Shown: piece after piece, positions 15,005-25,382 of the stretch
How positions within the stretch are numbered: the stretch's first letter is position 1
How the letters are laid out: each line of letters opens with the position of its first letter
Source: Ostreococcus lucimarinus
Taxonomy: Eukaryota
DNA length: 64,000 bases
Strand: one strand, 5' to 3'
Assembly: GCA_000092065.1 (NCBI GenBank)
Contig: CP000596.1
Program-made: the position numbers and the translations under genes
The notes under the pieces: model-generated
Databases searched by the model: none
Seen by the model: the letters and a program-made list of their open reading frames with translations, nothing else
What the model was told of the DNA's origin: nothing

Positions 15005-15373
15005 GTCGACGCGACGACGGCTCGATCGCGCGATCGCGCGATCGCGACTCGATCGACGACGCGCGTTTCGACGCGCGCGCGCGATCGACGCCGCGAGGTT
15101 CGCGCGCGACCGCGCCGATCGATCGGCGTCGACGCGACGACGGCTCGATCGCGCGATCGCGCGATCGCGACTCGATCGACGACGCGCGTTTCGACGCGCG
15201 CGCGCGATCGACGCCGCGAGGTTCGCGCGCGACCGCGCCGATCGATCGGCGTCGACGCGACGACGGCTCGATCGCGCGATCGCGCGATCGCGACTCGATC
15301 GACGACGCGCGCTTCGACGCGCGCGCGCGATCGACGCCGCGAGGTTCGCGCGCGACCGCGCCGATCGATCGGC
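15005..15373. repeat. Near-perfect 123-bp tandem repeat x3 (a fourth unit is degenerate), frame-preserving
   Basis: The unit gtcgacgcgacgacggctcgatcgcgcgatcgcgcgatcgcgactcgatcgacgacgcgcgtttcgacgcgcgcgcgcgatcgacgccgcgaggttcgcgcgcgaccgcgccgatcgatcggc recurs at 15005, 15128 and 15251, with a single t/c difference between copies. Confidence 0.9.
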
Positions 15374-15811
15374 GTCGGCCGCGGTCGCGCGCGCGACTCG
15401 CGCGACGCGCGCGCGAGACGCGCGCGCGGTGGACGATCGCGACGCGGGCGTCGACGCGACGGACGCGCGGTCGACGATCGATCGGCGCGCGCGACGGGCG
15501 CGAGGGAGGCGCGCGCGACGCGGGAGGCGCGCGCGGCGGTGCGGGTTCGGAGAGACGCGCGCGGCGGACGGACGCGCGGGGGCGCGGCGGAGGCGCGGAG
15601 ACGACCGAGGCGCGGTGAGGGAGTCGAGGGGATGCGCGCGCGAGCGATGGTGGGGGTCGAGGGGGGCGCGCGCGGGCGCGCGCGGGCGGTGGGACGCGAA
15701 AGAGGGAGGGACGGCGGGCGACGGCGACGCGCGGCGACGACGAGACGCGCCTCGGTCGTGGATTCCGACGCGGAGAGGGCGGGGAAGGATAAGGCGACGA
15801 AGGGATCGAAA

Positions 15812-16780
15812 ATGGTGACGAGCGTGGCGGAGGAGGAGGAGGATGGATTGGAGCACGTGTACGAGAAATCGCGGTGGTTTGAGATTCGGGACGTGGTTCG
15901 CCCGACGCAGGTGGCGCTGGGGTGGGATTGGACGTTTTATAAGCTCGCGAATTTTAAAGACGCCGACAGCGCCAAGGCGTACATGGCTCGGAAACCGATT
16001 CCGTACGTTAAATACCGAGGGTTGCGGTACGTGGTGGATCATCATCACACGCTCGCCGCGCTGAACCTGGCGGGTTGGGACATCGACGTTTACATGGAAG
16101 AGATTTTTGAGTACGACGACGACATCGGGGACGACAGGTTTTGGGGTAACATGGAGGGTAAAGGTTGGAGCTTCTGTTGGGATTCGGATTACTCTCGCTT
16201 GTCGCACGAATCTATCCCGAAATCGTTTGAACTGCAGGCGTTTAGAAACGACATCTTTCGCTCGCTCGGGGGGTTCTGCCGGAAAGCCAAGCTCCTCAAG
16301 CGCGGCAAGATGCTCGAAGAAAAATTATTTTTCGAGTTCCAGTGGGGATACTTTTTCTGGCTCCATAGAAACGACGCTTACGCGCTCTGGCCGTCGTCAC
16401 AACTGCAACGCGGTTTTGACCGTCTGCTCGCTATGATTGAGCAAACGGACGACAGCGAATACATCGGCGAGGGACATCTTGAGGCGAGTCGTGACGTCGC
16501 AGACATGATCTTTCTCTCGGACAAAGTTTTGCAACCGCTTTACGAAGTGCTCGTTGAGTACGTCGCGCCCCTGGCGTACGCGTACGCCACCTTGCCCGAC
16601 GACGCGCGCGTCGTCCACGGTTTGAGAAAGAGATTCGGCCGCGAGACTCTTCCCGGTTCCGTCATCACCGGCCAGTTTGACTTCTTAACCGAGCGTCAAA
16701 ATTTCACCATGCCCGAGGATGGGAAGAAGGACAAGTCTAAGGATGGAAAATCGAGCTCGAGCTCGAAGAAGAAGGACTAA
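15812..16780 (+). CDS. ParB-like nuclease (ParBc_2-type) domain protein
   Basis: PTQVALGWDW...PIPYVKYRGLRYVVDHHHTLAALNLAG resembles the ParB/sulfiredoxin-fold DGHHR motif. The ORF stays open upstream through the tandem repeats to 14996, so an Arg-rich N-terminal extension cannot be excluded. The first Met after the repeats is at 15812. Confidence 0.5.
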   Translation: MVTSVAEEEEDGLEHVYEKSRWFEIRDVVRPTQVALGWDWTFYKLANFKDADSAKAYMARKPIPYVKYRGLRYVVDHHHTLAALNLAGWDIDVYMEEIFEYDDDIGDDRFWGNMEGKGWSFCWDSDYSRLSHESIPKSFELQAFRNDIFRSLGGFCRKAKLLKRGKMLEEKLFFEFQWGYFFWLHRNDAYALWPSSQLQRGFDRLLAMIEQTDDSEYIGEGHLEASRDVADMIFLSDKVLQPLYEVLVEYVAPLAYAYATLPDDARVVHGLRKRFGRETLPGSVITGQFDFLTERQNFTMPEDGKKDKSKDGKSSSSSKKKD

Positions 16781-16882
16781 AAGAACGCCGCCCACCACCC
16801 GCCCTCCCCACTAGCCGACGCGCTGCCTGACGTGCGAGCTGTAATACGCACCAAACACCACGCTTACAATACGCGAGCGCGC

Positions 16883-17374
16883 ATGGTACACACCGCGTCG
16901 CGCGCTCCGCTCGCGCTACGACTGGCGTCCCCGCGCAGCGTCAGGGACGGGGACGTTGTCCGCCGAGTCGCCAGCGCCGCGCCCGCTCGCGACGATCTAC
17001 CGCAGACCTCGCGCGCGTCCAACGCGTGCTCCACGCTCATCGCTATCGCGCTCACCGCCTCGGCGCCAGCGTGGGCTTTCGACGGCGACGCCGCTGGGGC
17101 GTTCTCCTCCAGAGGTTGCGTCGGGTGCCACGCCGCGGGCGGCAACGTCGTCGCCGCGTCGGCCACGCTCTTCGCTCGTGATCTCGAACGCAACGGTGTG
17201 GCGACCAAAGAAGATATTTCGAACTTGATAGAGCGAGGGAAAGGGAAGATGCCGGGGTACGGGGAGTCGTGCGCGCCCAAGGGCGCGTGCACGTTCGGCG
17301 CGCGTTTGGACGCCGAGGAAATCGACGCATTGGCGACGTACGTCCTCGATCGCGCCGCGGTCGATTGGAAGTGA
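16883..17374 (+). CDS. Cytochrome c6A (c6-like haem protein with a Cys-containing loop insertion), chloroplast lumen
   Basis: A CVGCH haem-binding site is present, followed by ATLFARDLERNGVATKEDISNLIERGKGKMPGYGESCAPKGACTFGARLDAEEIDALATYV. The C..C loop insertion between the Met ligand region and the C-terminal helix is the c6A hallmark. The N-terminus is a transit peptide; an alternative start is the ATG at 16832. Confidence 0.8.
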   Translation: MVHTASRAPLALRLASPRSVRDGDVVRRVASAAPARDDLPQTSRASNACSTLIAIALTASAPAWAFDGDAAGAFSSRGCVGCHAAGGNVVAASATLFARDLERNGVATKEDISNLIERGKGKMPGYGESCAPKGACTFGARLDAEEIDALATYVLDRAAVDWK

Positions 17375-17459
17375 AACGAAATTGGATTGTTAGTTTTCAT
17401 CGTCGCCGAGCTTTGTATTTCAATTATAACTGTACAGGACATCTTGTCGAACGCTCGGC

Positions 17460-17915
17460 TCACCGCGTTGCGAGCGCTTCCGACGCCCCGCACGCCTCTC
17501 GAAGCGTCTCCACTAAGTGCATCATCTCCTCAGCGTCGCACATAAAATTCACGCGCTCGTCATTGCCCGAACCATCGCCTAAGACCCACGATATGTGAAA
17601 CGCCGGCTCGCGTCTATCTCCGTTGGCCGACGCGCTCACGACGTAATCCGCCCGACACGCGTGCGATTTCAACCGTTTCACCGCGCTCGACCGCGCGTGT
17701 CTTCGCAATTCCCGCTCTAACTCTCCTCTAATTTTCTCATATGCAGCTGCGACGCGCTGCGCGTTGGTTTTCGACGTTCCAGCGTCCCGCTCGAGCGTCG
17801 ACGCGACGTCGCCGCCGTCAAAGCCTCGTCTCGCCGCCTCCACGAACGTCACGGACACCCCCGCCACGGCGTCGCGCGCCTCGAGCGTCGACAATACCTC
17901 TCCAGCGTCTTCCAC
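17460..17915 (-). CDS. Hypothetical small protein, possibly Roadblock/LC7-like fold
   Basis: 151-aa ORF in a gap between annotated genes. The N-terminus (GEVLSTLEARDAVAGVSVTFVEAARRGFDGGDV) follows the roadblock pattern of hydrophobic and G positions. The call is weak. Confidence 0.3.
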   Translation of the reverse strand: MEDAGEVLSTLEARDAVAGVSVTFVEAARRGFDGGDVASTLERDAGTSKTNAQRVAAAYEKIRGELERELRRHARSSAVKRLKSHACRADYVVSASANGDRREPAFHISWVLGDGSGNDERVNFMCDAEEMMHLVETLREACGASEALATR

Positions 17916-24311: not shown

Positions 24312-25382
24312 CTAAATCTGAATCCCGAAGAAACGATCCCAAAACGTCGCCGTTCGCGTGACGTAGAAGCTTCGTCCCGACGGCGACGTCAAAGGTCCTT
24401 CGTAATCCACGGAGTCCGTCATCTCGCCGTAGCCTTTACCCGCGCCAGCCATGACGCGATCATCGTCGTATTCTTCTAGTAAGCCCGCTTCTTTGAGTTT
24501 ATCTTGAAGCTCCGACCGTCTGGCCTCCATGGTGAGCACCAAGTCGCCCAACGCGCGCGTGCGCTGACGATCAATTTGACGCAGCCTAGCCACCGCCTCG
24601 GCTTGCTGTTGTGCCTGTTGCAGCACGCTTCGCGTCTGTTCGATGAGTTCAAACTGCCCCTCGTCGTTTAATTCCTTAATCTCGACATTAATCGACACCG
24701 GTCGCTCGCCAATCAAATCAAACTCGTTTTCGCGTTGCTGCAACAAGCGCCGCACCGCCTGCAATTCTCGCTCCTTTTCTTGATGCTGCGCGTGCAAGTC
24801 CTGCATTTTCTGCGTCAACTCCTTCACGCGCGTGATCAAAACACCATTCTGATGCTCCACACTCCCAGGAAGCGCACCCCCGGTCTGCTCTACCGTCTGT
24901 CCCTGCAGCGCCGCCTTGCGCACCGCGCTCAAAGATTTCGCCGTCTCTCGCAATATATTCTCCGTCACCTCCCGCTTCATCGTCTCTCGCACCAGCGTCG
25001 CCTGCGTCTCAAACAACCTCTTCTCATTCGTCTCCACCTTTTCCTCCAAATTCATCTCCTCGTACCGCTTCAACGGCGTCCTCGACCGCGCGCTCGCGCT
25101 CGTCGCCGGCGTCCTCGTCGCCGTCTCTCCGTTCCCGCGCTCTCCGAGCGTCGTCAACCGTCCGTTCGTCGCCTCCGGCGCCGGCACCGGTCGCGATCCG
25201 ATCGCTCGCGGCCGATTCGCGGCGCCATCGACGACGCGTTTCGTCACCGTTCGCACCGGGATCTCGTCCACGGTTTGAATCGTCTTCACCGTGCGCGTCA
25301 CCGTGCGCGTCACCGTCGTCCCGTCCGCGAGCGTCTCGGTGTTTTCGTTCGTTTCGCGCGCTTTCGCGTCGCCCTCGCCCAT
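24312..25382 (-). CDS. Coiled-coil protein, unknown function
   Basis: Long heptad-like Q/E/R/L-rich stretch (QKMQDLHAQHQEKERELQAVRRLLQQRENEF...). The codon usage is coherent. Confidence 0.45.
   Translation of the reverse strand: MGEGDAKARETNENTETLADGTTVTRTVTRTVKTIQTVDEIPVRTVTKRVVDGAANRPRAIGSRPVPAPEATNGRLTTLGERGNGETATRTPATSASARSRTPLKRYEEMNLEEKVETNEKRLFETQATLVRETMKREVTENILRETAKSLSAVRKAALQGQTVEQTGGALPGSVEHQNGVLITRVKELTQKMQDLHAQHQEKERELQAVRRLLQQRENEFDLIGERPVSINVEIKELNDEGQFELIEQTRSVLQQAQQQAEAVARLRQIDRQRTRALGDLVLTMEARRSELQDKLKEAGLLEEYDDDRVMAGAGKGYGEMTDSVDYEGPLTSPSGRSFYVTRTATFWDRFFGIQI

Follow-up and report, generated by a model that had tools for sequence, protein, structure and literature searches.

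A cytochrome c6A gene with an intact two-cysteine loop insertion in the marine picoalga Ostreococcus lucimarinus

Described c6A proteins and the prior record

Within the cytochrome c6 family, c6A has a working definition in two parts, namely V, L or I at position 52 and a disulfide-bearing loop insertion, the LIP (Slater et al. 2021, PMC8358224), and the residue at position 52 lowers the midpoint potential of the haem (PMC8358224; 2026 Chlamydomonas preprint). The potential of Arabidopsis c6A is ~+70 mV, against ~+325 mV for c6 and plastocyanin (2026 Chlamydomonas preprint). As cited in PMC8358224, the LIP disulfide is seen in the Arabidopsis crystal structure and loop-intact algal c6A has been known since 2004. 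The proposed ancestors of c6A are the cyanobacterial c6B and c6C (PMC8358224), low-potential cytochromes whose equivalent of position 52 is hydrophobic (PDB 4KMG and 4EIE; Leu50 in c6C).

A knockout phenotype has been published for one c6A only, that of Chlamydomonas reinhardtii (CHLRE_16g670950, XP_001692119), a green-algal orthologue with the LIP GKECAPKGACTF and Ile at position 52. Its loss shifts light harvesting toward PSII, leaves the plastoquinone pool over-reduced and impairs growth under fluctuating light (2026 preprint). The same preprint proposes that c6A helps to oxidise the STT7 kinase via the LTO1 thiol-oxidase axis and passes the electrons to plastocyanin, while its authors allow that more indirect explanations are possible and consider a catalytic role of the LIP disulfide uncertain, as the bond may be structural. 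Chlamydomonas also possesses a canonical c6, induced by copper scarcity, whereas Ostreococcus is recorded as having none.

That record comes from Slater et al. 2021 (PMC8358224), whose supplementary table 1 lists a c6A for O. lucimarinus CCE9901, given as the chromosome record CP000596.1 only, and also for O. tauri (CAL57840.1), M. pusilla (EEH51598.1) and B. prasinos (CCO17277.1), with c6 and c6B entered as ‘n/a’ for all four of these Mamiellophyceae; the same paper assigns the O. tauri, Micromonas and Bathycoccus orthologues to the c6A set and reports a phylogeny that groups these three with the green c6A clade. A review (PMC3296057, citing Palenik 2007) has plastocyanin standing in for c6 in Ostreococcus. 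Because c6 is recorded as absent and plastocyanin takes its place, Ostreococcus has the land-plant configuration of plastocyanin and c6A without canonical c6, and for the same recorded absence c6A is its sole c6-family protein. A full-text literature search joining cytochrome c6A with Ostreococcus returned no paper, and a looser one none on c6A among the 10 listed of 1,266; the one prior record that we found is in the supplement of Slater et al. 2021. The preliminary description of the locus had offered this algal copy as a tractable comparison point; the copy adds little as a new point, with loop-intact algal c6A long described, the copy of this species already listed and the Chlamydomonas knockout characterised.

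Here we describe this gene in a window of 64 kb, the whole stretch of O. lucimarinus DNA that we analysed. Three ORFs near the gene match O. lucimarinus CCE9901 proteins exactly (ABP00160.1, a mitochondrial carrier; ABP00161.1, an ALG3-type mannosyltransferase; ABP00292.1, an RRM protein), and the ORF at 16883..17374 (+) is almost certainly the nuclear cytochrome c6A gene of this strain. The explanation developed below, which joins the c6A identity to a targeted precursor and to a proposal for a lumenal redox relay, is as a whole very probably the right one, and the relay carries a grade of its own. O. lucimarinus c6A is an ordinary member of a known family, and already catalogued.

Reading frame, constraint and presequence

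The complete coding sequence of the c6A precursor runs from 16883 to 17374 (+) as one unbroken ATG-to-TGA frame of 163 codons plus the TGA, which yields a protein of 163 aa upon ORF translation with no need for an intron; the PDB match and an MMETSP product agree with this model. Upstream of the c6A ATG, the frame holds no further ATG before it meets the TAA (16778-16780) that ends the preceding gene, and we therefore place the start at 16883. The preceding gene lies at 15632..16780 (+), 102 bp upstream; its product has a ParBc_2 (PF08857) domain and a C-terminal tail rich in Lys and Ser. Related contigs carry c6A versions of 192-193 aa with longer N-termini (P0088, P0093), which we discount as starts set by prokaryote-style gene callers; such callers produce these spurious extended models because the TAA of the ParBc_2 gene lies in frame with the c6A ATG across those 102 bp.

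All four strings quoted in the preliminary description were recovered in the ORF, namely CVGCH (residues 79-83; nt 17117-17131), ATLFARDLERNGVATKEDI, GKGKMPGYGESCAPKGACTFGARLDAEEI and CAPKGAC (residues 130-136). Six-frame translation of the whole window gives only two CxxCH motifs. The haem-binding CxxCH, on whose presence in the transcript the preliminary description had staked its claim, is found in the intronless coding sequence and confirmed by a transcript-derived protein.

An antisense ORF of 209 aa (16864..17493, -) overlaps the c6A ORF, and GC3 does not discriminate between the two (0.80 for the c6A sense frame, 0.75 for the antisense ORF), so that homology and conservation were used to separate them. 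The c6A ORF could accordingly be suspected of being either a pseudogene in decay or one of the spurious long ORFs that arise by chance on both strands of a GC-rich genome: the overlap, the high GC3 in both frames and what appears to be the lack of a protein record in the reference annotation all favour such a reading. It is set against a strong homology to a solved protein family in which the catalytic residues are all intact, and against a pattern of change in which the presequence drifts while the mature domain stays conserved. Thus, in Ostreococcus-clade orthologues, the mature domain is 74-82% identical and the presequence 22-38%, and in four close variants from other assemblies and the MMETSP transcriptome, 13 of the 14 substitutions fall within residues 1-65. 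A transcript-derived protein argues likewise against a pseudogene, as the full-length MMETSP product (P0085) is nearly identical, with three substitutions and the same length and start. So does the recurrence of the same protein in independent environmental assemblies, where four contigs encode it identically with at most one nucleotide difference, at a synonymous third position; in the public assembly collection, contigs in 1,316 blocks yield exactly this protein, which is widespread in marine assemblies. The conservation pattern read from these sequences already refutes the spurious-ORF and pseudogene reading, to which we attach a negligible probability. The locus is a real, intact and expressed gene under constraint. 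The 209-aa antisense ORF is best read as a by-product of high GC.

The precursor appears to carry a bipartite presequence that would direct it first into the chloroplast and then, by a Sec-type signal such as a c-type apocytochrome should have, into the lumen, as judged from composition, hydropathy and a conserved A-x-A motif. Residues 1 to ~42 (16883..17008, +; the boundary is approximate) form a putative stromal-targeting transit peptide that carries a net positive charge and is enriched in Ala, Ser and Arg, with 8 basic, 4 acidic and 16 Ser, Thr and Ala residues among the first 45. They are followed by a putative Sec-type thylakoid-lumen signal (residues 43-65; 17009..17077, +), composed of R43, a hydrophobic core at ~48-60 (CSTLIAIALTASA) and A-W-A at 63-65. 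This core is the sole strongly hydrophobic segment, with a Kyte-Doolittle peak of 2.0 at residues 48-58. The A-W-A lies directly before FDGD, and [AV]-x-A equivalents (ARA, VWA, AVA, AMA, ALA) occur in five of five Ostreococcus-clade orthologues, which points to cleavage after A65. A Tat signal at R27-R28 was considered and rejected, as ~20 residues separate the RR pair from the hydrophobic core downstream of it, and as c-type apocytochromes would be exported in the unfolded state. The mature cytochrome domain, delimited by conservation, homology to Arabidopsis c6A and fold matches, would then comprise the 98 aa of residues 66-163 (17078..17371, +); for a 97-residue version (residues 67-163), calculation gives a pI of ~5.0 and, haem excluded, a mass of ~9.9 kDa.

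On its 3′ side, c6A converges with a COMM-domain gene (17460..17894, -) that is followed by a methyltransferase gene, and with only 85 bp (17375..17459) between the two stop codons, the 3′ UTRs of the convergent pair probably overlap, as is typical of the compact Ostreococcus genome. None of the adjacent genes (ParBc_2, COMM-domain, methyltransferase) has a functional tie to c6A, as expected in a eukaryote. Searches of the 64-kb window by tblastn, for which a plastocyanin, a canonical c6 and the Chlamydomonas c6A served as queries, found neither a second c6-family gene nor plastocyanin. Approximately 1.5 kb upstream of c6A, between a DUF2358 gene (-) and the ParBc_2 gene, a repeat made up of 3.0 copies of a 123-bp unit, with 99% identity between copies, occupies 15005..15377 within a region of ~72% GC that has long ORFs on both strands. 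The number of copies varies among assemblies of the same species, with three in the window, two in L003 and one in each of L001, L002 and L004, and the repeat thus behaves as a minisatellite-like polymorphism.

Haem site, position 52 and the loop insertion

The sequence and fold matches place the mature domain with c6A of Arabidopsis (At5g45040; PDB 2CE0, 2CE1 and 2DGE; V52Q variant 2V07). Its best PDB sequence match, far stronger than chance would give, is 2dge (E 6.4e-29), aligned without gaps over 90 residues of which 47 are identical (52%), and the three highest-scoring matches, 2dge, 2v07 and 2ce0, are all Arabidopsis c6A (99.9-104 bits; E 6e-29 to 1e-27). The next best is the cyanobacterial c6C 4eie (51 bits, E 1e-12), and lower scores are given by cyanobacterial c6 (~43 bits), c6B 4kmg (38) and Chlamydomonas c6 (24); all 36 PDB matches at E <= 0.01 are c-type cytochromes, most of them of the c6 family. 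The resulting order of closeness, c6A (104 bits) before c6C (51), c6 (43) and c6B (38), is one of bit scores, and the fold ranking also puts c6A first. An AlphaFold2 model of the mature domain, from which haem is absent, has a pLDDT of 68.6 (loop region 54-70); a fold search with this model, of moderate confidence and used for ranking only, returned Arabidopsis c6A structures as the top four PDB matches (TM ~0.69-0.70). At the level of domain families, the protein matches Pfam Cytochrome_CBB3 (PF13442; 35.1 bits, cut-off 27) and Cytochrom_C (PF00034; 25.4 bits, cut-off 21.3).

The haem-attachment motif C79-V-G-C82-H83 is read directly from the sequence at 17117..17131 (+), and its two cysteines and histidine are invariant in 45 of 45 aligned homologues, a set of 42 LIP-bearing sequences and three LIP-less c6. 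We take C79 and C82 to be the thioether links to the haem and His83 to be its proximal axial ligand. The distal axial ligand, Met123 in GKGKMPGYG (17249..17251, +) by reference to established structures of class I cytochrome c and c6, is likewise invariant in all 45 homologues and is the only Met of the mature domain. With an N-terminal CVGCH and a distal M123, the protein has the hallmarks of a class I c-type cytochrome of the c6 family.

Within this family, the two parts of the definition of Slater et al. 2021 are both present, Leu115 at position 52 and a LIP with two cysteines. Leu115 (17225..17227, +) is the equivalent of Arabidopsis c6A Val52 in the numbering provided by the gapless 2dge alignment. 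In the corresponding column, the 42 LIP-bearing homologues have L in 14, I in 14, V in 13 and M in one, and the LIP-less c6 sequences have Q in three of three. The LIP, GESCAPKGACTF, spans residues 127-138 (17261..17296, +), with Cys130 at 17270-17272 and Cys136 at 17288-17290. It aligns without gaps to the Arabidopsis LIP, GEKCTPRGQCTF, with 8 of 12 residues identical, and corresponds to an exact 12-residue gap in c6C 4eie and in two canonical c6 sequences (P0078, P0080). Both LIP cysteines and a hydrophobic position 52 (including the one M) occur together in 42 of 42 LIP-bearing homologues, and the motif C-x-P-[KR]-G-x-C-T-F is kept in nearly all of them. By analogy with the Arabidopsis protein, Cys130 and Cys136 would form a disulfide at the surface.

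These observations support the main claims made beforehand. The c6A-type gene with a Cys-Cys loop that the preliminary description proposed is borne out by the gapless 2dge alignment and by both parts of the definition. Its CxxxxxC does lie at the c6A loop-insertion site, the point on which the proposal could have failed, as it falls column for column on the Arabidopsis C-TPRGQ-C and in the 12-residue gap of the loop-less c6C 4eie and canonical c6. The further suggestion of a low-potential form distinct from photosynthetic c6 draws support from the Leu that occupies the equivalent of position 52, a site at which canonical c6 carries Gln.

Could the protein nonetheless be a canonical photosynthetic c6 (PetJ), carrying electrons from cytochrome b6f to PSI? 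The JGI/IMG and TARA pipelines name the exact protein ‘cytochrome c6’ (COG2010, K08906), and its best NCBIfam match is Cytc6PetJCyano (NF045930). That match, however, reaches only 74.1 bits against an equivalog cut-off of 135, 61 bits short, and so the protein is not a canonical c6. The 12-residue Cys-Cys LIP is absent from canonical c6, position 52 is Leu and not Gln, the 104 bits to c6A compare with 24-43 bits to true c6 structures, and surveys describe Ostreococcus as lacking c6 and reliant on plastocyanin. We therefore regard the canonical reading as very improbable and, on the sequence evidence, as effectively refuted already. The ‘cytochrome c6’ (K08906) label for this c6A is misleading, and could make ocean ’omics studies score Ostreococcus as having an iron-dependent alternative to plastocyanin.

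The hydrophobic residue at position 52 is also common to c6B and c6C, and 4eie, with its Leu50, is the closest solved relative after Arabidopsis c6A, so that a c6B/c6C-type protein might be considered. Both of these, however, lack a LIP by definition (PMC8358224), and the cysteine pair with it, whereas the LIP is present here; their scores of 38 and 51 bits contrast with 104 for c6A. A c6A-like protein that evolved independently, as in peridinin dinoflagellates, was also considered, but dinoflagellate LIPs share little beyond their two cysteines (PMC8358224), in contrast to the 8 of 12 residues shared here with Arabidopsis, and the organism is a green alga. Neither of these origins seems to us to have any appreciable likelihood, and c6A remains the reading that we adopt.

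Compared with its named relatives, O. lucimarinus c6A has the same fold and mature-domain length as the Arabidopsis protein, which likewise has CxxCH, the Met ligand, a LIP at the identical position with both cysteines and a hydrophobic position 52. The two differ in Leu versus Val at position 52, Glu versus Tyr at 54 and CVGCH versus CIGCH; their presequences are unrelated in sequence, and the O. lucimarinus gene is intronless in a picoalgal genome of 13 Mb. Chlamydomonas c6A finds the window by tblastn with E 8e-37 and 48% identity over 154 residues, part of the presequence included. The O. tauri protein (CAL57840.1; OUS45373.1, ‘Cytochrome c-553’) is a direct orthologue, as are those of M. 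pusilla and B. prasinos, and all of them are catalogued as c6A (PMC8358224); the O. tauri mature domain, which likewise begins with FDGD and has the LIP GEACAPKGACTF, is identical at 81% of positions, while its presequence is only 22% identical and its position 52 is Val.

Two residues past position 52, Ostreococcus-clade c6A has Glu (Glu117; 17231..17233) where most c6A have Tyr (Tyr54 in Arabidopsis). This column among the 45 homologues holds Y in 27, E in six, A in five and T in four. Going by this substitution, some properties of c6A in the Ostreococcus clade could differ.

Annotation, proposed function and significance

In the protein collection, the exact c6A protein is of NCBI source but lacks a protein accession and does not appear in UniRef, nr or EukProt, whereas its annotated neighbours carry ABP/XP accessions. 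A second ORF of the window, 24312..25382 (-), is likewise of NCBI source without a protein accession or an entry in UniRef, nr or EukProt. This suggests that neither is included in the reference protein set of O. lucimarinus CCE9901. A protein of 108 aa (P0006) that is 82% identical to the O. lucimarinus c6A is named in NCBI as ‘MAG: c-type cytochrome [Burkholderiaceae bacterium]’, and is probably picoeukaryote contamination of a bacterial metagenome bin.

As for function, we propose the following course from what is known of the family. The c6A precursor would cross the chloroplast envelope, whereupon the Sec-type signal would take the unfolded apoprotein into the thylakoid lumen and be cut after A-W-A65; once there, the protein would receive its haem, on the lumenal side, from the plastid CCS (system II) machinery, and the surface disulfide between the two LIP cysteines would form. 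The midpoint potential would lie ~250 mV below that of plastocyanin, a value that is transferred from the family with Leu115 as its sequence proxy. Because of this difference, c6A would be unable to accept electrons from cytochrome f and would not serve as the carrier from b6f to PSI, a job that would fall to plastocyanin in Ostreococcus. Instead, it may act as a low-abundance lumenal redox relay that passes electrons from thiol oxidation, along the LTO1/STT7 axis, to plastocyanin, and so may help to keep light harvesting by PSI and PSII, and the redox state of plastoquinone, in balance under fluctuating light. Interactions with LTO1, FKBP13 and plastocyanin have been reported, and are, together with the Chlamydomonas knockout, the basis of the functional analogy; for Ostreococcus, we advance this relay tentatively, as the likeliest role, with odds that fall somewhat short of even.

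The main rival to the thiol relay, which we rank below it and consider rather unlikely, is that the LIP disulfide is purely structural and c6A a simple low-potential carrier or safety valve, passing, for example, excess lumenal or PSI-side electrons to plastocyanin. The very strong conservation of the LIP sequence across nearly all 42 homologues suits a structural constraint no less than a catalytic one.

Far less probable, in our estimate, is that c6A of the Mamiellophyceae has shifted in potential, partner or role relative to plant and Chlamydomonas c6A, for instance by acting more directly on the redox poise of the lumen in an iron-sparing electron transport chain that uses plastocyanin only. 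The idea arises because c6A is the sole c6-family protein in a tiny free-living eukaryotic genome and because the change from Tyr54 to Glu lies beside the potential-tuning residue. The Ostreococcus genome is among the smallest of free-living eukaryotes, and O. tauri can be transformed. If the role had indeed shifted, c6A function would be testable in an ecologically dominant alga, owing to this transformability and to the abundance of the protein in ocean metagenomes.

Whichever role c6A plays, the fact that the drastically reduced Ostreococcus genome has kept it, and no other c6-family protein, is a further circumstantial sign of its importance, as published surveys already say. The residual value of the locus is modest, and consists of the correction of an annotation together with a possible plant-like algal test system: the Ostreococcus orthologue offers a plant-like background, with plastocyanin and c6A and without c6, in which the LIP cysteines could be tested.
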